DNA of 41,870 nt from the IMG/VR virus record IMGVR_UViG_3300003323_000274, positions 1-41,870 of that record; one strand, 5' to 3'. A program made the translations under genes and the position numbers. The notes under the pieces were generated by a model. That model was not told where the DNA came from. It did not search any database and saw only the letters and a program-made list of their open reading frames with translations. Below are positions 7,550 through 35,699 of the stretch, in pieces. Source of the stretch: a virus. Numbering within the stretch: the first letter of the stretch is position 1; each line of letters opens with the position of its first letter.

Positions 7550-7553
7550 ATTG

Positions 7554-10693: not shown

Positions 10694-12694
10694 CTAATAC
10701 CTGTTTAATGTTGCTTCAAATGTATATAAAATATCCTCAAGATTTGATAATTCAGATTGAGAAAGTCCATCAGCAATACCAGCGTAAGAGGCTTTTTGAT
10801 CGGTTGGATAAATACCTCCAAGAATGCAAATGTTTGAACTAAAAGATGCAAATGATGTTGCGGTTTGATCTAACATCAATTGTTTGTATTTATATGATTT
10901 CCAACCAGTTGATGATTGTCGGCTAATATAGTATCGGCCTTTTGAAACTGGATTATTTTTGGTCGTTAATCCTCCTGATTGATTAAACTGTACATACATC
11001 GTTGATCCACCAGGGATGATTGTATAAGCACCTGTAGAATTTGAAGTCTGTGAACACATTATACTTTTTGTTCCGGTACCGGAACTTAATTGAGATGCGA
11101 ATAAGCAAAGATTATCACGATATGTTCCTGATGATGCCGGATTGAAATTCGTGCTCAGGAAATTATTCGCTGCGTTAGTCCCTGTAGCTCCATCACTTGA
11201 AAATGTGACCGTCCCTGTTTGAGTTAATCTATATGAAGCGTCTAAATCTTGAGGGTCTTTAAAATTGAATTTTGATTTATTTAAAGAAGTTCCTAATAAC
11301 CAAAATCCTTTTATTTTTGTCCATAGTGATTGTGCCTTACAGCTTACTATAAATTGGTTATAAGCTGACTTCTCATCGTCCGACAATGTTTCTCCTGTTC
11401 CTGTTATCGCGTTAAATAAAGCTGTCGCATCGCTATCGAAAGAAGATTGTATGTTATTAGTTACTATTTGATCTGTTGCATTCGGAACTTCTAAAGAATA
11501 GTTTCGAACTAAACTTGCGGCATCCCCTGTAGTTTGATCATAAGAATAAGTGACAACATCACCATTGGCTAACGTAGGTACTGTAAATCTTAATTTTGTT
11601 GTTCCACTGCCTGATACCGATGTTGGATTATTGGCACTTCCATTTTTCTTAAAAGTCCATCCCACATTTGTAGCTATGACAGGTACATTATAAGTTACGA
11701 TTATTGATGTTGGCGATGATACTACAATGCTTAACATTGTAGCATAAGTAAGCGGAATACCAGGATTTTCTATTCGATCTGCGAGTGTATATGAGAATTG
11801 TTTATGTTGGGCTGTATTCATGTGAACATTATCACCTGGCACAATGCTATTAGCTATTTCCCAATCCATTGAACTGAAGAAAGGAATTCTTCTATCAGCA
11901 CACAATGATTTGGCAGCATCCCTGAATGTGGCTAATCTTGTTGTATTGGTAGGGCTATTGAATGGGCCCATTACAACAATTCTATTAGATGGCCAACCCG
12001 CTGTAAAAATTGAATAATCGAGCCATGCACTTAATGCCGCCTTATATTGATCAGGAGTTGCATTTGATAAAATAGGCGTTGTTACACCATCATTAACACC
12101 AAAATCATTTATGAGGTAATTGAGTTCCGGTATCTTACTTACCATTTTATTGGCGCCAGTGCTATAAATCCATAAAGAAGTCGGGGGTGATGCTTCAGGA
12201 GTTATCGAATTACCTGGCAATCCTATAATTTCTCCAGCTGCTGGAACAGTCCAATTTTTAGCATAAGCAAACAACCATGCAAATCCAGAAGATAAAGGAG
12301 AAGCAGCCGTTCCATATACCATAGAATCTCCTACAAATTCAGTGCGTGTATCAATGGTGTTGTCTGATATTATTGTATTCAGTGTTAAATTAATCCATGA
12401 GCCTCCATTACTTCGAACTCTATAGAAACAATAGCCAGACATAGCCGCTGTTTCATCATGATAAGACAAATTTGATCCAGAATAAATTGTTATTGCATCT
12501 GAATAATCAGAAAAAAATGCTCTTTGCAATTCGTAATTTCCGGAGGTCTGATAAGTCCAAGAAACATTATTTATGAATCCATAATCATGTTGAGCGTATA
12601 GCGAAAATTGACCCGTAGTAAAAATGCCCTTGTTTTGAGCAAAGGCATTTAATGACAGTAATAAAAGTAGCGTAAGTATTTTTGTAATTCTCAT
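10694..12694 (-). CDS. secreted SGNH/GDSL-type esterase with large C-terminal domain (666 aa)
   Basis: Signal peptide MRITKILTLLLLLSLNAFA|Q. SGNH blocks are FVGDSMVYG, GVNDG and GDNVHMN. Confidence 0.7.
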   Translation of the reverse strand: MRITKILTLLLLLSLNAFAQNKGIFTTGQFSLYAQHDYGFINNVSWTYQTSGNYELQRAFFSDYSDAITIYSGSNLSYHDETAAMSGYCFYRVRSNGGSWINLTLNTIISDNTIDTRTEFVGDSMVYGTAASPLSSGFAWLFAYAKNWTVPAAGEIIGLPGNSITPEASPPTSLWIYSTGANKMVSKIPELNYLINDFGVNDGVTTPILSNATPDQYKAALSAWLDYSIFTAGWPSNRIVVMGPFNSPTNTTRLATFRDAAKSLCADRRIPFFSSMDWEIANSIVPGDNVHMNTAQHKQFSYTLADRIENPGIPLTYATMLSIVVSSPTSIIVTYNVPVIATNVGWTFKKNGSANNPTSVSGSGTTKLRFTVPTLANGDVVTYSYDQTTGDAASLVRNYSLEVPNATDQIVTNNIQSSFDSDATALFNAITGTGETLSDDEKSAYNQFIVSCKAQSLWTKIKGFWLLGTSLNKSKFNFKDPQDLDASYRLTQTGTVTFSSDGATGTNAANNFLSTNFNPASSGTYRDNLCLFASQLSSGTGTKSIMCSQTSNSTGAYTIIPGGSTMYVQFNQSGGLTTKNNPVSKGRYYISRQSSTGWKSYKYKQLMLDQTATSFASFSSNICILGGIYPTDQKASYAGIADGLSQSELSNLEDILYTFEATLNRY

Positions 12695-16122: not shown

Positions 16123-16675
16123 AACAATTTCTGCATCGGCAGTTCGGATCGTGACCTGTTAAACTATTTCGTCTGTGTTTATTTTTAACCGCTGTTATTC
16201 TGAATGAATTCCCACTCAGTTTAGAGTCATTACAACGATTGTGTAATGGATAATCTGTAATGTGATTATCCATAAATTGTATGAAAAGTTCTTTATAATA
16301 TTGACTCTTTTGTTTTGCATCCTTAATGATAGTTGCCATCTGAATATCAGTGGCAATTACACTATTTTCTTCAGTATGAACCCTGAAGCCTCCACGCGTT
16401 GGTTTAAAGTTTGCTTTGATAATCCAAAATTCATTTGCCTGCCATGCAACATATTGCTTTATGTAAGGATTATAAAGTGAGTTATATACTGGAGACATGG
16501 TTTTATTAACGTATGCTGTTTTAAAATCCTGATAGAATCTATCGGACATAAGCATTCTTAAAGTTTCCTGCGCCTGATAAATCTTTCCTTCTAATTCTTC
16601 ATCAGGAATATTATTAGGAATATCGCATTCCTCTTTTAGATAAGCATACGTTATTAATTTGTCTTGTTTAGCCAT
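16109..16675 (-). CDS. putative head-tail connector/adaptor (gp6-like)
   Basis: Sits immediately downstream of the portal. The N-terminal ITYAYLKEECDIPNNIPDEELEGKIYQAQETL resembles the gp6-like connector pattern. Confidence 0.4.
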   Translation of the reverse strand: MAKQDKLITYAYLKEECDIPNNIPDEELEGKIYQAQETLRMLMSDRFYQDFKTAYVNKTMSPVYNSLYNPYIKQYVAWQANEFWIIKANFKPTRGGFRVHTEENSVIATDIQMATIIKDAKQKSQYYKELFIQFMDNHITDYPLHNRCNDSKLSGNSFRITAVKNKHRRNSLTGHDPNCRCRNCYDQY

Positions 16676-18279
16676 TGGTCATACTCTTTAAGCTTTGAAT
16701 CAAGAAAATCAAACATAGCCTTGCCTCCCCAGGCATTGTATAAAACTACTTCGCAGTTCTTTTCGAACGGTGAATTAGCAAACGTATCACGAACCTTTAG
16801 AAAGTTATAAATTCTTTTTAACTGTTTCAATCCCATGTTTTGGTTTTGAACAATCATATTTGAAACTTCAGCGCCAGCTTTACCTCCGCATTTAAGTTGC
16901 ATTTTATCCATATAATCTAAAGCCGTTTGTACGTTTTTAATAACGTTTGGCGGGAAAGATATTGGAATTGCATTTTTAATATTTGTTGGTGGCGTTGGTA
17001 ATATCTGCCCCGGGGTTGATATATCGGTATTTGGATCGGTTAAATCTATCTCGGTATTATCCTGAATCCATTTACGTTGTTCTTCACGTGATAAAGCTGC
17101 CCAAACAAGTGGATTAACCTGGTTTACTTCAGGGTATGGATTATAAGGAACGATGTCTATATCCTGAATATAAGGCTTTGCCATCAACTTTAAAACCTGT
17201 GAATACATATCCGTTAGATTACGCTGGCGTTTTACTACACGCTGTTGCATTAGCTTAACAGCTACCTTTATCTGGTTACCATCACCGCCCAGGCTTACGC
17301 CCTCCTGAATGTTGGCAAGTATCCCAGGTACTTTCCACGCTACTGTAATTTTCTTTGTGGCTTGGTTGTCCAGCGTTACAAATACATCATCATTTGAATT
17401 TGATGGTATCGGTATTACTTCCGGTTTTTCTTCAGATGAATTAACCCATTGAACCCACATGTTACCCACACGTTTAGCGCCCATGAAATTATTGCTAATC
17501 ACTTCGTCAAACTCTTGTCCTACTGTCATAGGCTCTTTTGAATCTGCATACTCCGGATTATTGCTTGGTGCGTTAGGGTCTCCCTTCATTAAAAGAATGA
17601 AGGCCTGCATTAATCCGTTATCAATATTATCTTCATGGTAATTTGACACACCCGCTTCAATCTTCATCCATTTAACCGCCGCATAAGCTTCATTGATTGG
17701 ATAAAAACGGCTCATGGTTGAAGTTGACCCATAAAAAAGAACCTGGCCTTTATATTTATTGCCTTGTTCTTCCATTTGTTTCTTTACAACATCTGGATTA
17801 TATACGTCATAGGTCTTTGTCTTCTTTCTATTCGATTGATACTGAGGTGTACCGAAAAAAGGATTGTAAAATATCTTTGAAATATATCCGTTGTCGTCCG
17901 GCAAATCGAGACGGCAATTTTCGAATGGTAAAACCTCAATTTCTGTAACTTTACCAAGTGAATTATACTTCACAAGCCAATAAAATCCGAAATTCTGTTC
18001 GTATTCCTTAACTGTTTGGTGATGAACATGCCAAAATGTTTCTTTTTTCTTGTTTATGACAAGTTTTTCAAGTGCTTCATCGGAAAATCCGAATCCTTCA
18101 ACGAAATCACAACGTGTAGATAGACAAGATGCAGCGGAAGGGCTTTCAGAAATTATACGTGCCCACTCAATAGGAAAAGAATCACCGTCATGTCCAAAAT
18201 ACGGTATGTACCTGTCAATTGTTTGCTGGTATTTAGGAAATGCCTGCCTCCAAAGATTGTATATTTTCGTCTTGAACAT
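16654..18279 (-). CDS. portal protein (541 aa) with extra C-terminal domain
   Basis: Size, composition and the following connector gene all fit a portal. The C-terminal GG..G...WGG domain is of a type often fused to phage head proteins. Assigned without a search. Confidence 0.6.
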   Translation of the reverse strand: MFKTKIYNLWRQAFPKYQQTIDRYIPYFGHDGDSFPIEWARIISESPSAASCLSTRCDFVEGFGFSDEALEKLVINKKKETFWHVHHQTVKEYEQNFGFYWLVKYNSLGKVTEIEVLPFENCRLDLPDDNGYISKIFYNPFFGTPQYQSNRKKTKTYDVYNPDVVKKQMEEQGNKYKGQVLFYGSTSTMSRFYPINEAYAAVKWMKIEAGVSNYHEDNIDNGLMQAFILLMKGDPNAPSNNPEYADSKEPMTVGQEFDEVISNNFMGAKRVGNMWVQWVNSSEEKPEVIPIPSNSNDDVFVTLDNQATKKITVAWKVPGILANIQEGVSLGGDGNQIKVAVKLMQQRVVKRQRNLTDMYSQVLKLMAKPYIQDIDIVPYNPYPEVNQVNPLVWAALSREEQRKWIQDNTEIDLTDPNTDISTPGQILPTPPTNIKNAIPISFPPNVIKNVQTALDYMDKMQLKCGGKAGAEVSNMIVQNQNMGLKQLKRIYNFLKVRDTFANSPFEKNCEVVLYNAWGGKAMFDFLDSKLKEYDQWLNKTN

Positions 18280-19018
18280 CAGGTATATTGAAATTTACTG
18301 ACGCACGGATCAGTGTCTTACCGTAAAACTTACAAAAATATCCTTCTTTGGCAAGGGCTAAATCTTGCCTTATTGTTGAACGTTCTATATTTGCCCGGGC
18401 GCTTGAGTTCCGAATCTTCTTTTCGAAATCTTTTCGAATCCAGCTATAATGGTGCATTATTATTTTTGACCATTCAACTCCTGTATTTATATTAAGCTGT
18501 CGTGTTGGATCTATCCTTATTTGACGTGTCATTTTATCCCAGGCAAAGGGGAAATTACGATTCATTTCAAATCGCATGTTCGGTTCAAGCTTATGGATAA
18601 ATGTAACCAAAGTTGTATCTAGGCCTATTGTAAGCTTTGTACTTTTGAAATAGGTTTGGCAAGAGCATATAAGGCCTTTCAAATTTGGGTTTAAAAATCT
18701 TTCCTTCTCTTTTTTAAATGGTTCGTGTTCATAGAACTCGTCAGCATCCATCATTAAAAAATGTGTGTATCCTTGTTTTTTTGCCAGCTCAAGACCATAA
18801 TTTCTTTTATCTGTTTCAGATTGCATAGGGTTGGCAGACTTATGAGGCTCCCAGTTATAATAATCACCCCCTTCAGTTATGCCAGGTGAATGTTCTCCAT
18901 AATTACTATACCTTGAAAATATTACAATAACCCCATCAACTAATGGTCTAATGTTTCTTATTGAATGCTCAAGAATATCCCAATCATCCCAAACATTGTA
19001 AATAGCAGCTAATTTCAT
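18233..19018 (-). CDS. GT-A fold glycosyltransferase
   Basis: 261 aa, with a DxD motif in HFLMMDADEFY and an N-terminal Rossmann-like strand AAIYNVWDD. Its 3' end overlaps the portal start by 47 nt. Confidence 0.65.
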   Translation of the reverse strand: MKLAAIYNVWDDWDILEHSIRNIRPLVDGVIVIFSRYSNYGEHSPGITEGGDYYNWEPHKSANPMQSETDKRNYGLELAKKQGYTHFLMMDADEFYEHEPFKKEKERFLNPNLKGLICSCQTYFKSTKLTIGLDTTLVTFIHKLEPNMRFEMNRNFPFAWDKMTRQIRIDPTRQLNINTGVEWSKIIMHHYSWIRKDFEKKIRNSSARANIERSTIRQDLALAKEGYFCKFYGKTLIRASVNFNIPDVQDENIQSLEAGIS

Positions 19019-19087
19019 TGTTTTTAAGATTATTTTTAATAATTTAGCAGTGCGGTAGTGAAGCCAATAATACTATCGAAGACATTG

Positions 19088-19123
19088 AGGCCTGACTTGT
19101 TGGTAATCGGTCAGGCCTTTTTT
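19088..19123 (+). terminator. Plus-oriented intrinsic terminator inside a minus-strand operon
   Basis: A 9-bp stem aggcctgac/gtcaggcct is followed by tttttt on the plus strand. On the minus strand the hairpin has no U-tract. Confidence 0.55.
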
Positions 19124-19128
19124 ATAAT

Positions 19129-19344
19129 TCACCATAATCTGGTATGTTTATGCCAAAGCCCTTTTGGGCATTCCTCTTCTTTTATTTCTACTTTGGCATG
19201 CAACTCACAAAAACATATACCGCAAACAATGCCTTTTCTGAATGGACATTCAAAACAAATTTTTAATCTTTTTTTTGCCATCCATGAACGTTTAGCAAAC
19301 AAAAATAGAAACCACCCTTTGCAAATATTAAATAGCTTTTTCAT
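19129..19344 (-). CDS. small Cys-rich protein (71 aa)
   Basis: Contains CFECPF..CGICFC..H...CPKGLW, a putative zinc-binding pattern. ATGA-coupled within the glyco island. Confidence 0.5.
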   Translation of the reverse strand: MKKLFNICKGWFLFLFAKRSWMAKKRLKICFECPFRKGIVCGICFCELHAKVEIKEEECPKGLWHKHTRLW

Positions 19345-19955
19345 AACATTCCTTGAAGATGAAAAACTGAATTAGGTTCTGGTGTTGAATACCCAGGCCC
19401 AATATAAGACATGTGTTGGCCGCCGCGTTGAAATTTCATTCCCATTTGTTGAGCGATGATTGATCCACACGTCATATCATGCCGATGATTAGACCAATCG
19501 CCTTTAAAATGACCGTCTAAAGCTGATTGTTTCCATTTTGAAAACCACTCCATTGCAGTAGCATTTGTTTTATCAAGGCCCAGGAATCCGGCAGAGAACA
19601 TAATGAAATCAGTTTCTTTTGTGATTCCGAAATATTGCAATGTTTCAGGCTTGCACCAATCGCGCACATAATGCCCCGCTTCCGACATGAAATAACCATC
19701 TTGTTTTATGATGTTTTCAATGATTGATAGATCACCTACGCAATACATTGATGCATCACACCATATGACAATATTATCGCGTTCAAAGGCTTTTTCGATA
19801 GCATGTATCTTAAATTCATAAGGGCTTTCTTGATGTGATGGACTTCCTATTGCTTGATACTTATCGAATAATAAAACCTGATAGCCTCGGATGCTTTTAG
19901 CTAGGCGTTGCTGGCCTGATTGATAAGCGTTTGTTGCGAAGTTTACTATTATCAT
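19341..19955 (-). CDS. putative nucleotide-sugar transferase-like protein
   Basis: 204 aa. The N-terminal strand MIIVNFATN and IVIWCDAS (DxD-like) suggest a GT-A-like fold. Tentative. Confidence 0.45.
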   Translation of the reverse strand: MIIVNFATNAYQSGQQRLAKSIRGYQVLLFDKYQAIGSPSHQESPYEFKIHAIEKAFERDNIVIWCDASMYCVGDLSIIENIIKQDGYFMSEAGHYVRDWCKPETLQYFGITKETDFIMFSAGFLGLDKTNATAMEWFSKWKQSALDGHFKGDWSNHRHDMTCGSIIAQQMGMKFQRGGQHMSYIGPGYSTPEPNSVFHLQGML

Positions 19956-20554
19956 CGTGCAAAAATTAAATTCTCAGCTGAAGTATAAATCAAATTAAAC
20001 CCGAACATGTATTTCTGATAAGCATCCTTCAATTCTGGTTTTGAGTTCCATTCAATGCAGATCATTCTAACTCCCGAAAGATCCATGTCTGGTAAAATAT
20101 TAAGCTCTTCGCCTTCACAATCCATTGATATGAAATCAAATTGCTTAATGGTGAGACGATTTAAAAACGTCTTCCATTTGAAACACTTAACAGTCACTGG
20201 CTTATAGTCAACAGTTGATTTGAATCTATCCATTTCATGTGAGTGAAAAGTAGAAACAAGGCCAATGTCATTAGCTGAGCATAGCGGCCCTGACTCATGT
20301 AATATCGCATTACCATTATGATTTGATAAAGCAAAATCATATAAGTAAAATCCCTTCAGACCTTCATAGTTTTTCTGAAGCATGCTAAAAGCTTTTGGTG
20401 ATGGCTCAACGAATACTCCTTTCCATCCTAGTTCAGCAAGCGCTCTAACATTAGAAAATGTTTTACCATCATTACTACCAATATCTATGAATGATCCTTT
20501 CTGGCCTTTGAAGTAGTCCAATATTACTTCTTCTTCTCTGTTCTGTGAGTACAT
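19952..20554 (-). CDS. FkbM-family SAM-dependent methyltransferase
   Basis: Motif I is FIDIGSNDGKTFSN, and the length of 200 aa is typical of the Methyltransf_21/FkbM type. Confidence 0.75.
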   Translation of the reverse strand: MYSQNREEEVILDYFKGQKGSFIDIGSNDGKTFSNVRALAELGWKGVFVEPSPKAFSMLQKNYEGLKGFYLYDFALSNHNGNAILHESGPLCSANDIGLVSTFHSHEMDRFKSTVDYKPVTVKCFKWKTFLNRLTIKQFDFISMDCEGEELNILPDMDLSGVRMICIEWNSKPELKDAYQKYMFGFNLIYTSAENLIFAR

Positions 20555-20559
20555 ATTTT

Positions 20560-21132
20560 TTATCTTCTTCGTGGAAATACCATCTTGTTTTTGTTCTTAT
20601 AATCGTAGTGATACATATCCTTTTCAATATGCACTTCAGTTTTAAGTAACCCTAAATCACGTATCTTTGTAGCCCAAATGTAATCCTCCTGAATCCATAT
20701 TGGTTCGAATCTAACGTGCTTTACCAAGTCTCTTTTGAATGCGCATAGATGGTTTGGGTATCTGATATACTGGCCTCTTCGCTCTTCGTATCGCTCACCT
20801 AATTTGATTGTAAAATTTGCTCTATTACCGCCATCTGTAGTCATGAATCCTTTGAAGGTGATAACATCAGGGCATTTCTGTATTGCGTTTAATAGTTCTT
20901 TGACATAATAATTAGGCACAATATCATCGGTATCAATCTGGCAAAAATATTGTCCTTGTGCACGATCAATAAGTGCATTACGTTTTGATCCTGTTGGAAC
21001 ATTACGCGGGCTGCAGTCCTCAATTATCTCAACCCCTTCAACAATCTGCGGCGCTAAAAGTCCGCGTAATCTATGAAGATATGCTTGACTTTCCTGGTCA
21101 GGAAGTGTAGGTATGAGTATCGAAAGAATCAT
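20560..21132 (-). CDS. family-2 type glycosyltransferase
   Basis: N-terminal LSILIPTL and the DxD motif QIDTDD. Confidence 0.75.
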   Translation of the reverse strand: MILSILIPTLPDQESQAYLHRLRGLLAPQIVEGVEIIEDCSPRNVPTGSKRNALIDRAQGQYFCQIDTDDIVPNYYVKELLNAIQKCPDVITFKGFMTTDGGNRANFTIKLGERYEERRGQYIRYPNHLCAFKRDLVKHVRFEPIWIQEDYIWATKIRDLGLLKTEVHIEKDMYHYDYKNKNKMVFPRRR

Positions 21133-21815
21133 AGTTTTCCTTTAATCCAATTCAAATATTCAGGACTTTGAATTTTACCAGGAGGGTCAATTAACCCAAA
21201 ATTATTTTTATATCGTTCAATGAAAAGTTTTTCGCCCTGCTCCCATGTTTTATCTGCGCGTTCATTGATGGCATCCTTTTTAGTTCTTCCGGTGCTATAA
21301 TGATCGTGTGAGAATTTTATTGGTAGTTCAATCTTTCTTCCGGTTAGATCAGCTACGCACGTCATTTCTGTATCACAGAACATGTGTCTGTATTCTGGAT
21401 GATATACATATCCGAATCGATTGTAATACTCACGATCCATGATTGGTAACGTGATTATCCATTTCTGAATACCATCGTAAGTTTTAGCTATCCAATCACT
21501 TTTGCCTGTTGTTAATTTTATTAACTGATCACCCCAATTTTCCGGACAATCAAAATCATCTGACATCACTACAATTATTCTGCATGTCGAGATTGCTGCG
21601 GCTGAATTGATGGCATCAATAGCGGATCTGTTTTGACCTGTTAAAATGATATGATCTTTGAACAGACGATCATAATCTTTCAATTTCGGATCATCTATAT
21701 CAACAGAAATAATATATTCAACATCAACCCCAGCTGAGTTAATCCATTTTGTTGCTACTTCGCGCGCGCGTTCAGCGCGGCCCCTTGATGGATGTATCAA
21801 TGATATTATAGACAT
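21129..21815 (-). CDS. GT-A-like glycosyltransferase
   Basis: ISLIHPSRGR strand and VVMSDDFDCPENWG. ATGA-coupled. Confidence 0.55.
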   Translation of the reverse strand: MSIISLIHPSRGRAERAREVATKWINSAGVDVEYIISVDIDDPKLKDYDRLFKDHIILTGQNRSAIDAINSAAAISTCRIIVVMSDDFDCPENWGDQLIKLTTGKSDWIAKTYDGIQKWIITLPIMDREYYNRFGYVYHPEYRHMFCDTEMTCVADLTGRKIELPIKFSHDHYSTGRTKKDAINERADKTWEQGEKLFIERYKNNFGLIDPPGKIQSPEYLNWIKGKL

Positions 21816-22465
21816 GTAATTTTTATATTTTCGTTATGACAATAAATCGAGAATAGCCTTTCAAGCAAGAAAGGAGCCATAGGAAAATATGGAATTCCGA
21901 TTTTACGTTCTAATTCTTCATGCAAAGTCGTGTCATTTGTCAATGTCGAATATTTGCTATCAATCATTGATATTTTATTTAGCTCAGTATCGGTTGACAT
22001 CGCCTCCATGCATGGAGATAGATATCGTTTCACATAATCTTGATATGTTTCACGTGAAGCGCTGAAATGATTTTGATAAATAGGTGTTTTTACTTCGCGC
22101 GGCATTGATATTCCGCATGCATCCAGTATTTTTTTAAGTGATTCCTTAAAATTTGGATGCCATTTGTCAGCAGCAGCCAACATTTGATGGTGTCTTGTGT
22201 TTTTTGTGAAGGAAAGTACCTGATAATCTGAATTCATTACCTCAGGAGTTAATTCGCGCGGACTTCCGATGTAGTATTTCATCTTTTCCTTAAGCCTCCA
22301 TGAACAAACCGCTATTTTTTCAGCCTGCGAGGCCATAACCAACTGCGCAATAATAGTATTTTCAAAGAAAATGGTAAGTTTCTCGTTAAAATATAGATTA
22401 GCAAAAGGATAGCAAGCTTTAATTTGTTCATCCTTATAATAAATTTGTGTTAACTGCGCAGCCAT
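21806..22465 (-). CDS. hypothetical protein of the glyco island (219 aa)
   Basis: Co-oriented with and overlapping both neighbours. No motif recognised. Confidence 0.5.
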   Translation of the reverse strand: MAAQLTQIYYKDEQIKACYPFANLYFNEKLTIFFENTIIAQLVMASQAEKIAVCSWRLKEKMKYYIGSPRELTPEVMNSDYQVLSFTKNTRHHQMLAAADKWHPNFKESLKKILDACGISMPREVKTPIYQNHFSASRETYQDYVKRYLSPCMEAMSTDTELNKISMIDSKYSTLTNDTTLHEELERKIGIPYFPMAPFLLERLFSIYCHNENIKITCL

Positions 22466-22626
22466 CGCAATACTTTATTGTGACATGATCCGCATCCCTG
22501 CTTTGCTGATTTATCCCCGGTTTGTGAATAGTAAAAATCAAACACCTGGTTCCATGCCGGATGCTTTGAGGTATGATTTATCACATGATTATCTTCTAAA
22601 AGCTTAAGTGCTTCTGGCTTTGTCAT
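22450..22626 (-). CDS. small protein (58 aa; not in the ORF track)
   Basis: Hand translation gives MTKPEALKLLEDNHVINHTSKHPAWNQVFDFYYSQTGDKSAKQGCGSCHNKVLRWLRS. ATGA overlap upstream and a 16-nt overlap downstream. Confidence 0.4.
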   Translation of the reverse strand: MTKPEALKLLEDNHVINHTSKHPAWNQVFDFYYSQTGDKSAKQGCGSCHNKVLRWLRS

Positions 22627-22808
22627 AAAGATTGTCGTTTTTCATCATTAACCTTTGAAGCAATTGCCTTGATTAACTTTTCTAATGTTTCATGATGATC
22701 GCCAATAAACGGATTATCATCTGATTGTTTTAAGCCTTTTAAATACCATGCAATATCACAAAGGTTCATTCGATCAATTGCATTTATGTTTTTAAAATAA
22801 TCCTCCAT
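22623..22808 (-). CDS. hypothetical protein (61 aa from internal ATG)
   Basis: The track ORF starts at TTG 22895 but would then run through terminator 22843..22871. ATG 22808 (MEDYFKN...) is the more plausible start. Confidence 0.45.
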   Translation of the reverse strand: MEDYFKNINAIDRMNLCDIAWYLKGLKQSDDNPFIGDHHETLEKLIKAIASKVNDEKRQSL

Positions 22809-22842
22809 GCACGAATTTAAAAAATTCTTTAAAAATAACAAT

Positions 22843-22871
22843 AAAAAACCCGAATCATTTACGATTCGGGT
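22843..22871 (-). terminator. Strong rho-independent terminator after the capsid/tube genes
   Basis: The minus strand has a 9-bp stem acccgaatc/gattcgggt with a 6-nt loop, followed by ttttttattgttattttt. Confidence 0.75.
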
Positions 22872-22896
22872 ATAATTAAAGCTTAAAATATTCAAT

Positions 22897-23451
22897 TTAG
22901 GCTGTCATGGCATCAATATAAGCTTTTGTGGATGCTTGAGAACCACCTATCAATAATCGTTTTGGTAAGAACCTTTCAGTTCCCTTCAAATTGATTACGG
23001 AAGTTGTTGGATCTGTTGCCTGTCGGCCTGCACCTCCTGTGGAAGCATCTGAAGTTAGTCCATTCTCTGCTCCATATATCAGATATTCACCGGCATTAGT
23101 CTTAACAATCACACCGACTTCCGATACGCTAAGATCTTCAATTGTCGCGTCTGCTGTTGGATCGCTGTTGAATGCTCTTAATGTAACCTCCTGAAGATAC
23201 GATTTGTTTCCACCGTCTCCGGTTTGCTCAGTCCATTTTGCCTCATGGCTGTACTTAGCAGATGAAACCCGATACAAACTTTTGTAAGTATTGAATTCTA
23301 AATCCTTCACATAATCTGCTGTCTCAACTGGAATGGCTGTTCGTAAATCAGATAGATTGAAAATCCAAACTTCTTTACCAACGCCACCAGGCTTGCGGAG
23401 ATTGTCGCAATTAGCGTCAATGCCGCTGCTTATTCCGCATTGTATTGGCAT
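22897..23451 (-). CDS. putative major tail (tube) protein (184 aa)
   Basis: Lies immediately after the capsid gene and before a strong terminator. Beta-rich, with GLTSDASTGGAGRQATDPT and GKEVWIFNLSD patterns reminiscent of major tail proteins. Confidence 0.4.
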   Translation of the reverse strand: MPIQCGISSGIDANCDNLRKPGGVGKEVWIFNLSDLRTAIPVETADYVKDLEFNTYKSLYRVSSAKYSHEAKWTEQTGDGGNKSYLQEVTLRAFNSDPTADATIEDLSVSEVGVIVKTNAGEYLIYGAENGLTSDASTGGAGRQATDPTTSVINLKGTERFLPKRLLIGGSQASTKAYIDAMTA

Positions 23452-23452
23452 A

Positions 23453-24511
23453 TTAGTGGTAGATAGCTGTTAAATCACACTGAATAAACTGAACTCCGAA
23501 ACGGCTCTCATATTGTGAGTAAGTCTGTTTCGTTCTCTGATCATAGAACATATCAATACGGTCAAGATCTGAAGCGCTCTCAGTACCCAATACAAAATTG
23601 CTGAACTTAGAACTACCGCGTGTTGTGTAGATCAAGAAGTGACGCATGTTATTGTACCAAGGGTTTGCGGAATCTTCAAAGTAGTTATCCGCAATGTAAA
23701 GCGGCGCTACTTCAATACCTCTGTATGTAAGCTTCTGATTGCCCAGGCCGTCAACAATCAATCTGAACTGCATTTCTGTAGCTCCGTTTGTCTTGCTCTC
23801 GTAAGAGGACAAAAGATTTTCATATACCGAACCAGTAACCCAGAAAATCTTTTCAGAATTAGGAAGTTGTTTCAAAATAATTGAAGCTCCCTGATGAAGG
23901 GCTTTGATTGCGTTGTATGCCTGGTCTGTCGCCAGTACTGAATTGTATTGGTTTGGTAGATCGTTACCAACTGCTTTAACGCAATAAGACGCAAAGGCAT
24001 CCAGCAACTTAACCAACATACCATCAATCACATTGTAATCAGCGTTATTTGATTGGTCATTGGCAAACAAAACAATTCTCCATATATCCCTACGGATAGC
24101 GTCTATTTGCTCATCCATCCAGATGCTTCTGACCTTTGCAGTTACATCATAACCATCAAGTCCATTGGCAACAAAAGATTCATCTTCAGTAAGTGCTGAA
24201 GCAGTTGCCATGAAGTCTGATTTACACCAGGATTGATTTGCTTCGAATTTACCAACAGAAATCTTGCGATCTGAGAAGGTGCCTGCGGTTGTGTAAGTGG
24301 GATTACAACCTGTTGCGGCTTTTAACAGCTTTTCAAGCTGACCAACTAAAACTAGGTATTCATCAGTGCGGATGTTTTGGCGGATAGTAAACATGTCACT
24401 AAGCGCTGGTGTCATGATAGACGGCTTTCTGTATAGCTCAACAGGTAACTTACCTGGGTAGGTATACGATGGGCTGTATGTATATGACGATGCGTTTTTA
24501 AACTTGCTCAT
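23453..24511 (-). CDS. major capsid protein (352 aa)
   Basis: Lies directly downstream of the prohead protease/scaffold gene with a 1-nt spacer. The size fits an HK97-fold capsid protein. Assigned by synteny. Confidence 0.6.
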   Translation of the reverse strand: MSKFKNASSYTYSPSYTYPGKLPVELYRKPSIMTPALSDMFTIRQNIRTDEYLVLVGQLEKLLKAATGCNPTYTTAGTFSDRKISVGKFEANQSWCKSDFMATASALTEDESFVANGLDGYDVTAKVRSIWMDEQIDAIRRDIWRIVLFANDQSNNADYNVIDGMLVKLLDAFASYCVKAVGNDLPNQYNSVLATDQAYNAIKALHQGASIILKQLPNSEKIFWVTGSVYENLLSSYESKTNGATEMQFRLIVDGLGNQKLTYRGIEVAPLYIADNYFEDSANPWYNNMRHFLIYTTRGSSKFSNFVLGTESASDLDRIDMFYDQRTKQTYSQYESRFGVQFIQCDLTAIYH

Positions 24512-24512
24512 C

Positions 24513-25694
24513 TTATTCTTTGTTTTTAAAGTTTGCTGGTCTGCTTGTAAGCCAAGCGTTTCCTAATTCTTCACTCATTGCGTCATATTGACGACCTCCA
24601 TTTTCCGCATTACGGAATGCGTGATCTTTCTCAATTGGATCATCATCACCAAAAGTTTTGGCCGCTGCTTCACTTAAATCTTTGAATTGTTTTTCAAGGA
24701 TTTCAACCTTAGCCATAATTGACTTGTTAGTCACTTCGGCTGTTTCTGCGGCCTTCGCACTGGCTTGACTCGTTGCTAGTGCTGCCGCTAACTGAGCTTC
24801 AAGCTCTTTAATACGTGCGTCTTTTTCCATGTCTTGTGTGTTTGGTTCTCCTTTTTGTGTCGTGTCTGCCGGTTCCGGAGAAGGAACTACAGCGGTAATA
24901 ACCGATCCTACTACAGTAATTGTACTGCCGGAAGCCAGATCATATTCACCATCTGGTAAGGGCTCCCCTGTTTCGAGCATTATTTGTGCATTGGTTAGAT
25001 CACCGTTATTATCCATGATCATAACCTTTCGGCCGTCTGCCAGCGTGTCCTCAGTCTGATTTTTAATCTTCAGTGCCTTGAACAGATTGGTAATTTTGGC
25101 CGACAATTGGTCAAAAAGTGATTTTTCCATGTCGTTCTTAATTTTTGTTATATCTACTTTTGCAACTGCTTTCATCGATTCAACGACTTCATCGGCAAAA
25201 CCATATTGAGTTGCGGCCTGGTCTGCGGTTAGCCATGTCTCGTTATCGTATAACGCCCATAGCTGTTCTTTTGAAATTGATTTTCCGTTACGAGCCGCGC
25301 GGCGACCAGATACGTCAATCAATAAATTTTTTATAGTATCAAGCTGATTGGCAACATTACGTAAGTCGCCAGCATCACCTTTAATTCCGTCTATGTATGG
25401 GTTATGGATCATGAACTCAGATGTTTTGTTCATGATGATCTTATCACCAGCAAATGCAATAAGTGTAGCAATAGAAGCGCAAAGGCCCTCAATACGGGTT
25501 TCAATTGGCTTGTTTAAATTCTTAATAATGTTATAAATTCCGTATCCTTCGAATACATCCCCACCACCAGATACGATGTGGACTATAAAATCTGATGCTT
25601 TAGGATACTGGTTGATTTGTTCACGGACATTATTAATAGAGACTTCTCCTTCTTCAGTTCCAATATAATTATAAATGAAAATGTGTCCCGTCAT
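24513..25694 (-). CDS. ClpP-like (S14/S49) prohead protease fused to a scaffold-like C-terminal region
   Basis: Motifs SGGGDVFEGYGIYN, GLCASIATLIAFAG (Ser) and FMIHNP (His). The C-terminal half is an Ala/Glu-rich coiled coil. Confidence 0.8.
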   Translation of the reverse strand: MTGHIFIYNYIGTEEGEVSINNVREQINQYPKASDFIVHIVSGGGDVFEGYGIYNIIKNLNKPIETRIEGLCASIATLIAFAGDKIIMNKTSEFMIHNPYIDGIKGDAGDLRNVANQLDTIKNLLIDVSGRRAARNGKSISKEQLWALYDNETWLTADQAATQYGFADEVVESMKAVAKVDITKIKNDMEKSLFDQLSAKITNLFKALKIKNQTEDTLADGRKVMIMDNNGDLTNAQIMLETGEPLPDGEYDLASGSTITVVGSVITAVVPSPEPADTTQKGEPNTQDMEKDARIKELEAQLAAALATSQASAKAAETAEVTNKSIMAKVEILEKQFKDLSEAAAKTFGDDDPIEKDHAFRNAENGGRQYDAMSEELGNAWLTSRPANFKNKE

Positions 25695-25733
25695 GGATGC
25701 TAAGTTCCAAAACAGGAATGATTTTTAAAGGTA

Positions 25734-25961
25734 TTAATTTTTACCCATTTGGGCCACTATTTTCTTTATGGTTTCGAAACTCATTTTGAGTTTATCAGCC
25801 ATTTCATAATAGATATCAGTTTTTGTTTTCCCTGATCCTGAATATGTTTTATAAAGATTGTAAACTTCTTCATGGCGCGGATATTTGCATGAAATTACAC
25901 CATCCTTCACCATTTGGTTTACTGTCTCCTGTGGGATTCCATATTTATCTGATAAGCTCAT
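25734..25961 (-). CDS. Mor-like / sigma region-4-like HTH protein (75 aa)
   Basis: [10 protein letters not shown]...[20 protein letters not shown] resembles the C-terminal HTH of the Mor family. Confidence 0.4.
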
Positions 25962-27994
25962 GATCCAAATATTGAGTTAGTTTCTTTTATCTGTAATTGA
26001 TTGGCCTTACGTAAGAACTCTTTAATTGAAATCTGTTGAGGTGGCAAATTCTTAATAGCATTAGCCATAATTATAGCCTGCTGAGTTCCTGATATACTGG
26101 TATTCGTTACAAAACCACCATCAGCATAACCACGCACACGCATTCCTTCCAATGCCGCAATATGAGGTTGCGCTGCTGGAGCATTGACTACATTTTGTGG
26201 AGCAACGTATTCACCTTTATGAACAATCCCAGCAGGCTCATATTTTCCACCGTCACCAGTATAACCACCTTCAGCGAATGTAATCCCATTAATAGCTGCA
26301 ACATTAGCTAGACCGGCAGCAATCGCCGCCGCCGCTGCAATAGCTCCATAAGCCACATTTATTTCAGAACCAGATGCAAAAGCCGCATTAGCAGCTTTAT
26401 AAGTATCAATTAACGCTACTGCGCTGGCGATTAACTTATATTCATTGCTATTTTTATTAACCGCTGCTGCAATATTTGCCAATGATTGGCGTGTGATGTT
26501 TAGGATACTATCTTCAACACTTTGTCTTAATTGTATTTCTTTTTGTGATCGTTCATAGTCTTCTTTAGCTGCCTTATCCTTCATTCCTTTAAGACCTTTT
26601 TGTAAAGTCTCTTCAGATGATAAAGTGAATTTGGCAGTGCCTTCAATTAAATCCTTTGTTCTCTGCTGATCATCTAATTGTTGTTGTGTTTTTTCAGTAT
26701 CAGGTGTTTGTTGTATTGCATTTTGATCCGCCAGGCTGACAACCTCACTTGGATTATTAACTTTTGAAGATCTTCTATTGATATCTGTTACTGCCTTATT
26801 AATCCTATCTTCCTCAGCAGCTTGTTTACGTAATAATTCTAATCTCTTTTGTTCAGCAGACGTTAAATTTTCTTTTAACCTGAGTATTTTTTCGACCTGT
26901 TTAGTCGTATCCTTTTCAATCTTTGATATTTCAAGTTGTTTTTCTAATACTACAGTCTGTAAATCTTCATTTTCCTTATCTAAAGCTAATTGGAATTGAA
27001 GTTCTTGTAATTCATCTTTCTTAACTTTTAAAAGTTCTTCCTCATTAGCTCTAAGATTATCTATGATTTGGCCGCTTTTGAATATTTTATCATCGTATGA
27101 TACCTGGGCATCACCAAGATCTGATAATAATTCCTGATTTGTTTCAAGCCTGTCATTAACTTTATCCCTTACCTGTATTTCAGTTCTGCCAAGATCCTCT
27201 AAAGTTTCTTTTGATTGTGCTGAAGCTTTTGCTAAAATGGCAGTAGTAGTTCCAAAAACTTGTGCTATTCCATAAGTAGCAAGCTTTGAAAATAATCCTT
27301 CTCCATCTTCAGCAGATGATATTAATCCAGCAAATGCATTACTTGTTAATGATATTGCTGATGATAATTCATTTTGTGCAAATTCAAGATCTTTTGCTCC
27401 TATCGTAGATTTAGTATAGGCAATACCTAAAGCCGTAACAAGACCTATTGCTGCCGTTGCAGGATTTGCAAATGAGGCTAATTTTGTTCCAATGTCTCCA
27501 ACTGAAATACCGGCTACATTAATGCCTTTTGCAGCCTCTCCAAACTTCTCAGGATAATTACCAATCTGATCTTTGAATAATCCTGCTGATTTAGAAGTTT
27601 TGGTTATTTGCTCATTTAAAGTAGATAGCTCTTTTTCTAGTTCTTTCTGCCTGGCTAATCCTTTATCTGTTGCTGTATTGAGATTATCATATTCTTTGGC
27701 CAGAATAGAAACTTTTGTCTTTAGTGCATTTCTGCTATTACTCTCAGTGTTTATTAAAGCTGTTAGATTACGAGATTGAGTTTGCTCAGCCTTTAAGTTC
27801 TGCTGAATTCGTAAGCTCTCTTTTACATACTCTTCCTGTGTAATGATCCCCTTTTTATATTCAGCAGTAAGCTTTGTCTGAGCTTCCTTGTTTGAAAGTA
27901 TGGCTTTATTTACTGCAATCAGATCTTTCTCGGCCTTACTATGGTCTATCTCAAATTTTAATATTACCGTTTCGTCAGTTTGCTTTGCCATCAC
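25958..27994 (-). CDS. tape measure protein (678 aa)
   Basis: Long coiled coil with internal hydrophobic Ala/Gly segments. The C-terminal [25 protein letters not shown] motif is typical of tape measure proteins. Confidence 0.75.
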
Positions 27995-30219
27995 TTCGTT
28001 ATTTTAACAAGCTCCAAAATGCAAGGTGTTACGCTATCTTTATAACCAGTTAGTTTATTAGCTATAAAAAGAGAATTAAATTTTTCTGTTTTTAATCTAA
28101 TTGGTTTTGTAAGATCCAGATTTAAAAACACTTGTTCAGGTAATAAGAATTCAACAATTGGATTTATGGGATTGTTCAGTGAATCTCGAATGGCACCATA
28201 ATAAGTATCTGTCATATTCAATGAATCGAATCCATCAATATCACCGAAACTCAATCCCTGCCTAACGATATCAAGTTCGCTGCCATCTTTCGATTTAACA
28301 AATACAGCAACTCCAACATTTTCATGATATACTTCTGGCCATGTGTCTATCCCATTATCAAATAATTGCCATTGACCATTATAATTAATTATTGTTGAAT
28401 CAGATATTTTCCAACATGATGATCGCATAGGATCTACAGATCCAACTGGTGGCACGACGGAGTTATCGCCTCCGACACTAAACCTGATCTTTTGCGGAAG
28501 TGTGACATCTGGGAAATATAAAGCGACAATCTGATCATCAGAAGTATTTAGTTTATATTGCTGAAGTGTTAGTGTTCCTGTTGCATTTCCTACATATGGA
28601 ATATTAAAGAAAGTAAAATTACCTCCTGATGTATGAAATACTGCTAGTCCACCACTATTCGTTACGCTGGTGATTGCATAAGTGACCTCAGAATCTTCTA
28701 TAGTTAGATAATCGGATTCAACCAAGAATGTTTTAAATAGATCATTCCGATAGCAGTATGGAGCTATGAAATCAAGACTTGTGAACTCTTTTAATTTTTT
28801 TAATGATCTATTATTGACATCAAAACTTCCTTGTCCCCATTGTAATACATGTGAATCATTGTAGTTTTTTATCAGATCATTATCAGCAGCTTTATAACTT
28901 ATCGTGTTTATCTGTCCATAATTTGAAATCAGATTATAATTACTCAGTTCATTGATGTTATTAATGTACTCACTTAGATCTTGTTCTGGATAAGATGTAA
29001 TGTCTTTATATAAAACTGTATTGACAACTTTTGAATATTGATTGTAACTAGCAATTACATTGAACATCTTAAAAATATCGCTTAGAAAATCAACGCTATT
29101 GGCATTCGGGCAAAGCGTGGATGCAAATACAAAATCAGTTGCAACAGCACTTATTTTAAGAGTTGCTGTGTTAATATCGTTTGTTCCTGGGCCTGAATCA
29201 ACAAATGAAAACATTTCAAAGTAATCTCCAGCTTTCATAAAAAGATATCCAGAATATTTTACAGGATTTGGGGTACTGCCATTTACAAATGCATTGTATC
29301 TATTAACACCGTTAACATCAAAATGGAAATGTGTTTCTTTGCTGGTATCTGAAACAGATGCTGTAAACTCAACGTGAATTACGCATTGATAAGTAGCTGT
29401 AAATCTGTTAATACTAGTATCCCAATTATTTAATTTAGATTGATATTGCGGTGAAGTGTTAACCAGTTCAAATGATAATTTTGTAGGTGTAACATTCGCA
29501 ACAGTCTGAGGGATTTTACTAGCCACAGAAATATTTTGATTTGCTATCACCTCTAATTTTTTCTGTGAGTTATTGGTAGTAATTAAATTATTATAGTTTG
29601 CGTCTTTTAATAGATCACCAGATATGGTGAGTCCTGCCTTACTCATTATTGCATTTACTATGTGCTTAACAAATAAAAATGGCTGAAATTCATTCTTTAC
29701 TGTTGTTCCCTGTCCAGGTGTTTCAAATGCCTGAATACGTTGATTAAAGTCACATTGTAGAAAATAATCACTTCTACTTTTTAAAACTCCAATATCAATA
29801 AGAGGCCACACCACTCCGGTATTATTGCTCCAGCTTGATATAATAGTATCTTCACGGGTTTCTATATCATAGGCAGATAAATCAAGATCAATACACTTTC
29901 CAGTTATCTTTGAGAAGAAGTTATTATTATCAGAAAAGAATGAGCAATCAATCCCGATTGAGTTGTCAACGTTTATATAACCTATGAATAGAGTAATTCC
30001 GCCATCTGTTTGTATCTGAACGTTTTCAACGAGACATGCATTCTCATTATTTGAAACATTGAGTACATTGAGTAATCTTCTATTCTGTGCTGTTGGTTCT
30101 ACCGTGAATGAATAGGAAAATGTACCGGCGGTAGTAAGCGTAGCGAAACTGAATAATTGTTTTTCAATTACTATATCTCCATTGAATTCCAGATATTCAT
30201 CGCCTACTTTTACAATCAT
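27991..30219 (-). CDS. large virion/tail structural protein (742 aa)
   Basis: Beta-rich, N/S/T-rich, and ATGA-coupled to the tape measure gene. Function unassigned. Confidence 0.5.
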
Positions 30220-30635
30220 AATCTTTGCGCTGGAATATTATCAGTTAACCTAACTCTGAAGGATAGTGAAAAAACTTTGTCATCTTCTGTATACTGTCTA
30301 AATGAGTCTGAATCAACAATAACCGTTATCCGATCATTACGACTATTCATAATCTGAACGATAGGTGAAGTCTTAATCTTGCTCAAAGCCTCCACCTGAT
30401 TAAGTGTTAAATGCTGAGACTTCAGTGTTTGAAACTTCTTACCTGTTTTGAAAGTAGTCTTTTCAATTGTATCAGCCGTATTACCATAAGACTTAGGCCA
30501 ATTTGGCAATAGATTTGTTTTAGTTGTTCCGCTTCCATCAATATCTATTCCATATTCTTGTCTGGCATGAAACAGAAAGTAATCAAATCCACCTAAAGGA
30601 TTTAACCATGTTACGTATGTATTACTCGCTTTCAT
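30216..30635 (-). CDS. hypothetical virion protein (139 aa)
   Basis: Coupled ORF between two large structural genes. Confidence 0.5.
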   Translation of the reverse strand: MKASNTYVTWLNPLGGFDYFLFHARQEYGIDIDGSGTTKTNLLPNWPKSYGNTADTIEKTTFKTGKKFQTLKSQHLTLNQVEALSKIKTSPIVQIMNSRNDRITVIVDSDSFRQYTEDDKVFSLSFRVRLTDNIPAQRL

Positions 30636-33378: not shown

Positions 33379-33393
33379 GGTACCAAAAATAGA

Positions 33394-34169: not shown

Positions 34170-34226
34170 ATATTATTCTGTTTTGTCTGTCTCTGTACGG
34201 TGACGTGATACCACTTTTGCAAAATA

Positions 34227-35688: not shown

Positions 35689-35699
35689 ATCATTCAAAT

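Follow-up and report, generated by a model that had tools for sequence, protein, structure and literature searches.

A conserved glycosyltransferase and methyltransferase cassette between the capsid and portal genes of probable Bacteroidota phages, with a proposed role in virion glycosylation

The 41,870-nucleotide (nt) viral record IMGVR_UViG_3300003323_000274 of IMG/VR, analysed here over its full length and called the window, carries on its minus strand a block of nine open reading frames (ORFs; 18233..22808) lying between the portal gene and a terminator 3' of the genes for the capsid and a 184-amino-acid (184-aa) protein. We find that this block, which encodes glycosyltransferases (GTs) and a methyltransferase, is an old, vertically kept and compositionally fluid module of the head gene cluster rather than a recent insertion, and we consider it fairly probable that it directs, in the cytoplasm, the attachment of an O-methylated glycan to virion proteins. 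Phage self-glycosylation cassettes that include a methyltransferase are already known from actinobacteriophages; what is new is a partly homologous, larger and differently composed cassette, in another slot of the head module, in uncultured and probably Bacteroidota-infecting phages, together with a hallmark protein family. In the literature searched, self-glycosylation of phage particles is demonstrated only for a few mycobacteriophages, and neither there nor among 50,697 GenBank phage records did we find a described equivalent for Bacteroidota phages, in agreement with a preliminary description of this DNA.

Proteins of the block are named by w and their length in amino acids (w58, w219, w228, w190, w200, w204, w71 and w261; w184 is the 184-aa protein), and all window coordinates below refer to the minus strand. 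The nine ORFs, reported before as co-oriented and mostly overlapping, were all recovered, six of their junctions overlapping by 4-47 nt and two being gaps of 5 nt and 110 nt; the motifs read in them earlier (SILIPT and QIDTDD, MMDADEF, IHPSRGR and VVMSDDFD, VIWCDAS, FIDIGSNDG) are likewise present. Three of the proteins had been called clear GT-A glycosyltransferases, a label that suits w190 but not w261, while w228 is supported as a glycosyltransferase. The first of these, w190 (20560..21132), with its DTDD motif, scores above the cut-off of the Pfam GT2 family PF00535 (28.7 bits against 23.3), matches a glycosyltransferase PHROG at E 1e-26 and, when its family profile is compared with the Protein Data Bank (PDB), finds GalT1 (5hea, E 4.3e-10) followed by heparosan synthase, TarS, PglI, RmlT and TarP. 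Residues D67 and D69 of QIDTDD are invariant, and these matches, with the actinophage homologues described below, mark w190 by sequence as a GT2 glycosyltransferase, a family of GT-A fold and inverting mechanism. For w228 (21129..21815) the match is to the glycosyltransferase PHROG 14945 (E 7.8e-21); its Pfam GT2 score of 15.0 bits is below the cut-off, and hhalign aligns it with the w190 family at the DxD and ED..W motifs (E 0.009), an invariant D86-D87-F88 occupying the DxD position. Its weak PDB matches to polypeptide GalNAc-transferases (ppGalNAc-transferases; E 0.006) are a hint only.

The third protein, w261 (18233..19018), belongs to a separate GT2-related family in which the E..KRN and D-x-D-E (D91-x-D93-E94) motifs are invariant. 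Its own Pfam GT2 match is below the cut-off (15.1 bits, E 0.023), its profile finds nothing significant in the PDB, where the flagellin O-GlcNAc transferase GmaR shows a weak resemblance (E 0.095), and its relation to the w190 family by hhalign is faint (E 0.07, at the KRN/DxD region); weak GT2 matches do occur in 22 of 37 homologues (best 5e-4). With 1191 cluster representatives at E <= 0.001 the family is a large one, and among its distant relatives 7 of 40 match GT2 and some are fused to RgpF, LicD or GT25 domains. Both w228 and w261 would, on these matches, be divergent GT2-like enzymes. The methyltransferase w200 (19952..20554) had been described as an FkbM-type S-adenosylmethionine-dependent enzyme and is an FkbM methyltransferase, with 60.7 bits to Pfam PF05050 (cut-off 22.7, E 2.6e-16, 152 of 173 profile positions covered) and with G26, N28 and G30 of FIDIGSNDG invariant; it is probably a sugar O-methyltransferase.

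A fold can now be proposed for w219 (21806..22465), which had been listed as a 219-aa protein of unknown nature. Its AlphaFold2 model (predicted local distance difference test, pLDDT, 91.9) has as its best Foldseek match in the PDB the glycosyltransferase WbbM (6u4b; E 8e-4, probability 0.99, template-modelling (TM) score 0.45-0.52, TMq 0.45), after which come only GT-A-type enzymes and a few weakly matching nucleotidyltransferases of IspD type. In BFVD the model superposes on uncharacterised phage and Hyperionvirus proteins (TM 0.74-0.81) and weakly on a DUF4422 phage protein (E 9e-5, TMq 0.52). WbbM is thus its closest solved structure and the DUF4422 protein a further match, but the TM score to WbbM is only 0.45-0.52, the alignment is to WbbM as a whole entry with the domain unspecified, and no Pfam or PDB match exists at the level of sequence: a Pfam scan of 49 homologues gave no consistent family (an isolated match to SPOUT methyltransferases was dismissed as chance), the profile matched no PDB sequence, and no DxD motif is present. 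The DUF4422 domain of WbbM is presumably a GT111 galactofuranosyltransferase domain. A pattern-based scan of 185,579 species genomes, limited in sensitivity, returned no cellular homologue of w219, only three short phage-like contigs in Bacteroidota metagenome-assembled genomes (MAGs). The model suggests a GT-A/DUF4422-like nucleotide-sugar transferase fold, in a family that has no characterised member and is the hallmark of the cassette.

The model of w204 (19341..19955), noted before as a fourth GT-like protein on account of VIWCDAS, bears that assignment out (pLDDT 94.5). It has 295 Foldseek matches in the PDB at E <= 0.001, the best being the blood-group enzymes GTA/GTB of family GT6 (TMq 0.63-0.69), with the LH3 GT domain, LARGE1, XXT1 and BoGT6a among the others (E about 1e-6; TMq 0.51-0.69 overall). 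An HRHD motif is conserved, and the DxD position reads D67-A-S69, with D and S invariant, so that the canonical DxD is replaced by DxS. Because of this replacement, and because stereochemistry here rests on a model, we file w204 as a predicted GT-A fold enzyme of retaining-like type and not as a member of GT6. A Pfam scan of 47 homologues showed no consistent family, an isolated protein kinase match again being dismissed as chance; the w204 profile found nothing significant in the PDB, and in hhalign neither w219 nor w204 was related to the w190 profile.

How the block is distributed among related viruses was examined by scanning IMG/VR with the portal, w184 and w219 as queries, which gave a comparison set of 50 distinct genomes with both the 184-aa gene and the portal gene in the fetched locus (loci are cited by L numbers). 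The cassette is present in 24 of them, where the gap between the two genes measures 1.8-9.5 kb and holds sugar-related genes; in the other 26, which are BS-TP3-like (that is, Bacteroides-phage-like) and in many cases apparently from gut samples, the gap is 0.4-0.7 kb and holds a single gp5-like gene. All 38 loci of w219 homologues in IMG/VR share the same capsid-portal context. Within the 24 cassettes w219 is invariably present and always the first enzyme, a w190-type GT2 occurs in 23 and an FkbM methyltransferase in 22, while w228, w204 and w261 are each found in 12, a GDP-mannose 4,6-dehydratase in 11 (Pfam E 7e-118; beside it, in two genomes, an FdtA-like cupin) and a TylF methyltransferase, a second O-methyltransferase, in six (E about 1e-24 to 1e-30). 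Extra GT2s are also among the variable genes, and the smallest cassette, in L109, reads w58-w219-GT2-w71. The earlier remark that no sugar-nucleotide synthesis gene accompanies the block is true of the window, though not of these relatives. Three of the block's genes were searched for in metagenomes, where each has 354-863 homologues, and all enzyme genes of the window are kept in related viral contigs at 35-70% identity. Recent horizontal acquisition is rejected, since the block (G+C 0.36-0.37) does not differ in G+C from the remaining window and the divergence of the cassette enzymes is similar to that of the portal and capsid; the image of a wedged-in island gives way to that of an ancient module in a constant slot.

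None of the nine proteins has a segment that reaches a Kyte-Doolittle 19-residue mean of 1.6, and among the 263 ORFs of the 24 cassettes there is no enzyme-sized membrane protein, flippase, polymerase, ligase, Gtr-type protein or initiating phosphoglycosyltransferase, which extends to the relatives what had been stated of the window's transmembrane segments, flippases and Gtr-like proteins. The only hydrophobic cassette ORFs are small (51-104 aa), and two GT2 ORFs pass the hydrophobicity threshold only through N-terminal residues of the mechanically called frame. From the lack of enzyme-sized membrane proteins it follows that the pathway is soluble, as is that of chlorovirus PBCV-1 (PMC9614988).

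The clearest link to a known function comes from GenBank phages, compared by tblastn against the 50,697 records of INPHARED; megablast of the region against GenBank phages gave no match. While w219 and w204 have no homologue there, w261 only in Lak megaphages and w200 only in three uncultured huge phages, w190 finds 63 records, all of them actinobacteriophages (39 of Mycobacterium, 22 of Gordonia, 2 of Actinoplanes). Its closest relatives are the group of LittleE gp15 and Sixama gp91 (34-37% identity, E about 1e-19), and Che8 gp108 is also among them (31.5%, E 3e-11). A hidden Markov model (HMM) of the w190 family scores 99 bits on residues 9-184 of gp108, 109 on LittleE gp15 and 108 on Sixama gp91; a TylF-family HMM built from the relatives' cassettes scores 48 bits on residues 238-356 of gp108 and 44.7 bits on the Corndog O-methyltransferase gp35, and reverse phmmer searches agree with both. 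Ten of 14 distinct TylF genes lie directly 3' of a w190-type GT2, the order of the two domains in gp108. No homologue of Che8 gp109 and gp110 or of Corndog gp36-38 was detectable among the proteins studied here. According to papers citing Freeman 2023 (PMC12363180, PMC11600133, PMC11256854, PMC12619734), Che8, Corndog and Myrna bear glycans on capsid and tail-tube subunits that their own transferases make, and the preliminary mention of mycobacteriophage virion glycosylation cassettes with a methyltransferase is borne out by that of Corndog (PMC4351075, PMC11600133). The homologues of w228 in GenBank phages are glycosyltransferases of Streptomyces and Arthrobacter phages only; in Streptomyces phage Patelgo (L135 5357..7090), the one such record inspected, the homologue belongs to a group of two GTs and a nucleotidyltransferase set among replication and nucleotide-metabolism genes (deoxynucleoside monophosphate (dNMP) kinase, phosphatase, MazG), for which a role in DNA modification would fit.

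We propose that the soluble GT-A-type transferases w219, w228, w190, w204 and w261 transfer single sugars in succession from host nucleotide-sugars to cytoplasmic acceptors, which would most likely be the capsid protein, w184 or both, encoded just upstream. The priming step may be taken by w219, suggested for this role because it is invariant and always first, although it might also be a donor-forming enzyme; the variable enzymes would extend and cap the glycan, which would then differ between related phages, and w200 would O-methylate one of its sugars. Since a terminator and then a promoter-like element precede the block, the enzymes may be expressed below the level of the structural proteins and act late in infection. 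The benefit could be shielding, stability or adsorption. Several observations speak for a virion role: the fixed slot in the head module across deep divergence, the absence of recognised lysogeny and DNA-modification genes from the window, and a gene content that varies between close relatives, as expected for a surface-exposed glycan. The earlier suggestion of virion-protein glycosylation with a methylated sugar is, on sequence grounds, strengthened by the homology to Che8 gp108 and Corndog gp35, but its acceptor is one that we infer.

The candidate acceptors are the products of two adjacent genes. The major capsid protein (23453..24511) is recognised by its place after a ClpP-type protease/scaffold gene (24513..25694) and by homology to gp3 of the Bacteroides phage BS-TP3, annotated as capsid. 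Directly after it and ahead of the terminator, w184 (22897..23451) is a candidate abundant virion protein with 109 homologous ORFs in the fetched loci, no significant match of its profile to PDB sequences, PHROG 19091 and 21217 (both of unknown function) and a weak match to PHROG 19979, virion structural protein; its former label of tube protein is neither confirmed nor refuted by these data. In loops of the capsid and 184-aa proteins the density of Ser/Thr is higher where the cassette is present than where it is absent (0.29 vs 0.08 and 0.37 vs 0.17), a weak enrichment confounded by phylogeny, and conserved Ser/Thr positions specific to island-bearing phages number two in the capsid and zero in the 184-aa protein, which does not suffice to propose sites. 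A Ser/Thr-rich C-terminal tail of w184, once considered island-specific, was dropped when a larger alignment showed a comparable tail in island-less relatives.

That ambiguous Ser/Thr signal is one of several points that weigh against virion glycosylation. The glycan is predicted here from genes, and a position in a structural operon is no proof of function: unrelated 'moron' genes often sit in such operons with a promoter and terminator of their own, and the cassette has both kinds of boundary. Among the window's enzymes w190 alone has homologues in the validated actinophage systems, TylF occurring in relatives only, and the enzymes reported to be essential, Che8 gp110 and Corndog gp38, have no detectable counterpart. 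For w228 the only GenBank-phage homologues are actinophage proteins, and the Patelgo copy has genes of DNA metabolism around it. Lipid-linked precursors at the inner membrane face are also substrates of GT2 enzymes that have no membrane segments. Finally, in L018 the capsid (1671..2708) is 81% identical to that of the window while the portal, the 184-aa protein and the cassette enzymes reach only 40-66%, which indicates, as far as identities can tell, a recombination that replaced the capsid gene but not the genes beside it, and hence that capsid and cassette do not travel as a tightly linked unit.

Soluble transferases at the inner membrane face might instead remodel the host envelope, acting on lipid-linked precursors of lipopolysaccharide (LPS), capsule or glycoproteins that host flippases and ligases would export, whereby superinfection would be blocked or progeny kept from sticking to debris. 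Among the PDB neighbours of w190 are enzymes that build wall teichoic acid, N-glycans and heparosan (TarS, TarP, RmlT, PglI, heparosan synthase), the RgpF, LicD and GT25 fusions of distant w261 relatives are typical of cell-surface polysaccharide synthesis, the SGNH esterase domain of a 666-aa late protein and a second esterase (see below) suggest an acetylated surface polysaccharide, and the variable gene content recalls O-antigen loci. We nonetheless judge this reading unlikely: not one of the 24 cassettes has an initiating phosphoglycosyltransferase, flippase, polymerase, ligase or Gtr-type protein, the genes belong to the head operon and are expressed with the late genes, leaving little time to rebuild a cell surface, and where w190 has phage homologues they belong to actinophages that glycosylate their virions. 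Classical seroconversion in particular is unlikely, given that the window shows no recognised integrase or lysogeny module.

Two other acceptors have to be weighed. DNA hypermodification, in which modified bases would receive sugars from the transferases, to be trimmed by the methyltransferase, as a guard against restriction and nucleic-acid defences, would have a precedent in the DNA glycosylation by multiple GTs reported by bioRxiv 10.1101/2023.12.21.572611 and NAR 2026 gkag646, and it would agree with the nucleotidyltransferase, dNMP kinase, phosphatase and replication genes beside the Patelgo homologue of w228 and with the faint match (E 0.12) of one w261 homologue to a TET-associated glycosyltransferase. 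It appears very improbable, given that Pfam scans of the 30 window ORFs of at least 100 aa outside the cassette, several large ones of which stay unannotated, recognised no enzyme that makes a hydroxylated or hydroxymethylated base (cytosine or other DNA methyltransferase, TET/JBP dioxygenase, thymidylate-synthase-like hydroxymethylase) and no base kinase or DNA polymerase, just as they recognised no integrase or lysogeny module. The cassette, moreover, sits in the head and not in a replication module, and five GTs, sugar O-methylation and, in relatives, a 6-deoxyhexose pathway and an apparent fucosyltransferase better fit a glycan on protein or polysaccharide. A different cytoplasmic acceptor, be it a non-virion phage protein, a host protein, or a free methylated oligosaccharide or glycolipid serving takeover or counter-defence, would suit the moron-like terminator and promoter-like boundary, the lack of a characterised member in the family of the proposed primer w219 and the weak resemblance of w261 to GmaR. 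It would not explain why the cassette keeps so strictly to the capsid-portal slot across deep divergence, the homology to Che8 and Corndog components points to virions, and we know of no cassette of 5-12 glycan genes of such kind with a non-virion acceptor; we regard it as quite unlikely.

Returning to virion glycosylation, the observations can be joined in a bolder form, which we put forward tentatively and with doubt that all of its parts will hold. Tailed phages of Bacteroidota would possess a self-contained, virus-encoded protein-glycosylation pathway in which w219 founds a family of protein-priming GTs shared with some giant viruses; the capsid, w184 or both would be coated with an O-methylated 6-deoxyhexose glycan, and its composition, diversifying as O-antigens do, would give each phage a 'virion serotype' relevant to adsorption, stability and recognition by predators and defences in soil.

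The boundaries of the block are well marked. As reported before, a terminator stands ahead of it: directly 3' of the stop codon of the 184-aa gene, a hairpin with a 10-bp stem and five G-C pairs (ACCCGAATCG-TAAA-TGATTCGGGT, 22871..22848) is followed by a T-run and would end the capsid/184-aa transcription unit. Terminator-like sites as a whole are not enriched in the region (7 found against 6.1 expected), but the hairpin and T-run 3' of the 184-aa homologue recur in all island-bearing relatives that were checked, whereas genomes with the gp5-like gene in the slot lack them. Next comes an AT-rich stretch (22812..22836), predicted to be promoter-like, that ends in TAAATTCG 3 nt ahead of the first ATG. 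This sequence is a degenerate copy of a palindrome, TTTAAAAATTTTTAAATT(TG), found at the same spot between terminator and first cassette ORF in relatives (L003 2796, L019 10617, L018 3327, L020 3884, L041 3644) and occurring only once within about 20 kb of each locus that carries it. The 3' end of the palindrome, TAAATTTG, matches the Bacteroidota -7 box TAnnTTTG at 3-6 nt ahead of the start codon; as a promoter box it would yield a nearly leaderless mRNA. A sequence similar to the palindrome is also seen at 35695..35714, upstream of an ORF (35347..35697) that precedes the terminase gene. At its other end the block overlaps by 47 nt, through w261, the start of the portal gene (16654..18279; PHROG 11226, E 1.5e-46). 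The 110-nt gap ahead of w261, the sole sizeable intergenic gap of the cassette and mostly missing in relatives, contains a G+C-rich hairpin of 9 bp (19088..19118; GGCCTGACC...GGTCAGGCC on the transcribed strand) with no T-run.

The small proteins of the block differ in their ties to it. A 61-aa ORF (22623..22808) is counted from an internal ATG, the mechanical call beginning at TTG 22895 and so crossing the terminator; it has homologues only in L017 and L021 (35-39% identity) and is not clade-wide. The 58-aa CxxC protein w58 (22450..22626), previously counted with the island as a small Cys-containing protein, is homologous to the N-terminal 50 or so residues of the 190-aa gp5-like protein that occupies the slot in island-less relatives (jackhmmer, E about 1e-19), and is therefore part of the ancestral head module. 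The Cys-rich w71 (19129..19344; seven Cys, PHROG 13558 at E 2e-7, a weak match to Pfam DUF6171) is possibly a zinc ribbon and accompanies the island in roughly half of the genomes.

The relatives' cassettes hold further genes. Homing-endonuclease genes lie within three of them (L019 14061..14630, L020 8400..8975, L122 12372..13046), two being of HNH/NUMOD4 or HNH/AP2 type by Pfam and one GIY-YIG-like by eye only. Inspection by eye also finds, in nine genomes with dehydratase-type cassettes (L037 4272..5087 and eight others), the motifs HVRRGDY and SSFSWWAAWL typical of GT11 alpha-1,2-fucosyltransferases, and, in other cassette ORFs, a GT25-like N-terminus (L111 14670..15461), an exostosin-like C-terminus (L037 8205..9041), a CxxxCxxC radical-SAM motif (L033 5106..5894) and a sulfotransferase-like P-loop (L124 11276..11836).

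The window appears to be a whole phage genome, related contigs measuring 42-44 kb. Its late genes (16654..35399) have an unusual order, in which the large terminase (34227..35399), large proteins of unknown function (614 aa and 742 aa), a 678-aa protein with tape-measure-like PHROG matches, the protease/scaffold, the capsid, w184 and the cassette all precede the portal. The order protease, capsid, 184-aa protein, variable slot, portal is common to BS-TP3 and about 50 IMG/VR contigs, and protease/scaffold and capsid are fused into one ORF of 747-780 aa in L111, L113, L114, L117, L119, L120 and L122. A tRNA-Trp gene (anticodon CCA, 7553..7626) is found just downstream of the gene for a GH108 endolysin (7630..8142). 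The 666-aa late protein (10694..12694) contains a GDSL/SGNH esterase domain (E 5e-5), as does a protein of BS-TP3, and its neighbour (9729..10691) encodes a carboxylesterase-like protein (E 1e-6); the two esterases suggest, from their sequences, a deacetylating receptor-binding or receptor-destroying activity on host polysaccharide. The nearest cultured relatives, the Bacteroides salyersiae temperate phage BS-TP3 and Tenacibaculum phage Larrie, are very distant, with portals about 27% identical. Contigs with w219 homologues have been placed in the bins of soil MAGs from Cyclobacteriaceae, Chitinophagaceae and Ohtaekwangia, and one homologue carries the label Bacteroidota; a Bacteroidota host, probably in soil, is likely.

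Glycosylation of mycobacteriophage virions shields the particles from antibodies. Were the present proposal true, virion glycosylation would have a longer history and a wider distribution than the actinophage examples suggest, would extend to an abundant and uncultured lineage of soil, and would serve purposes beyond the evasion of mammalian immunity. It would make w219 a testable candidate for a new family of priming glycosyltransferases, while cassettes of 2 to about 12 genes would offer a natural series linking gene content to glycan structure, and GT genes labelled 'auxiliary metabolic genes' in viromes may turn out to be morphogenesis genes.

Among known systems, those of seroconversion (GtrABC, the O-antigen-modifying GTs and TarP of Staphylococcus aureus prophages) are similar in that phage GT2 enzymes alter a surface glycan. 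They belong to temperate phages, use membrane proteins (the flippase GtrA, and GtrC) or target wall teichoic acid, and lie near attachment or lysogeny modules; none of these temperate, membrane-protein or lysogeny-module features was found in the window or the cassettes, where no membrane flippase or polytopic transferase occurs among the 263 ORFs and no integrase was recognised in the window. Chlorovirus PBCV-1, whose genes include A064R, A061L, A111/114R and A118R, offers a functional likeness, with no claim of sequence homology: it encodes a soluble cytoplasmic pathway in which retaining and inverting transferases of GT-A type act stepwise and two methyltransferases O-methylate the terminal 6-deoxyhexose, rhamnose (PMC9614988). 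Like relatives of the window it has its own GDP-mannose 4,6-dehydratase, A118R (PMC9614988), and w204 resembles GT34/GT6-type retaining enzymes, as does the first domain of A064R (A064R-D1). PBCV-1 is, however, a eukaryotic giant virus with scattered, early-expressed genes and N-linked glycans.

The actinophage systems are closer, and the block presents what typifies them: tandem soluble phage GTs, with or without an O-methyltransferase. Corndog, too, has a methyltransferase-plus-GT cassette within its head-assembly genes (PMC4351075), whose enzymes, according to PMC11600133, modify capsid and tail tube, and its gp35 is homologous to the TylF proteins of the relatives' cassettes. The Corndog slot, in contrast, runs from portal to protease and not from capsid/184-aa gene to portal, and the cassette described here is larger, with five GT-like genes, and grows to some 12 genes in relatives. 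Structural modules with GT clusters are found again in cluster J mycobacteriophages (Omega, LittleE) and Gordonia phages (Sixama, Ronaldo), which hold the closest relatives of w190: in LittleE, gp15 comes immediately 3' of the capsid gene, with three further GTs behind it, and in Sixama, gp91-92 separate the adaptor gene from the gene for the major tail protein. These clusters differ in containing a kinase and in lacking genes of the w219, w204 and w261 types, and to our knowledge their function has never been put to the test. Che8 gp108-110 (cluster F1), at the right end of the genome and not in the head module, act in a mycobacterial phage rather than one of Gram-negative Bacteroidota, and, beyond the fact that the present cassette is known from its genes alone, its methyltransferase is of the FkbM and not the TylF family, and w219, w204, w228 and w261 have no Che8 counterpart. 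Both systems nevertheless have soluble GT genes in tandem; w190 corresponds to the N-terminal GT2 domain of gp108, and the TylF genes that follow w190-type genes in relatives' cassettes correspond to its C-terminal domain.

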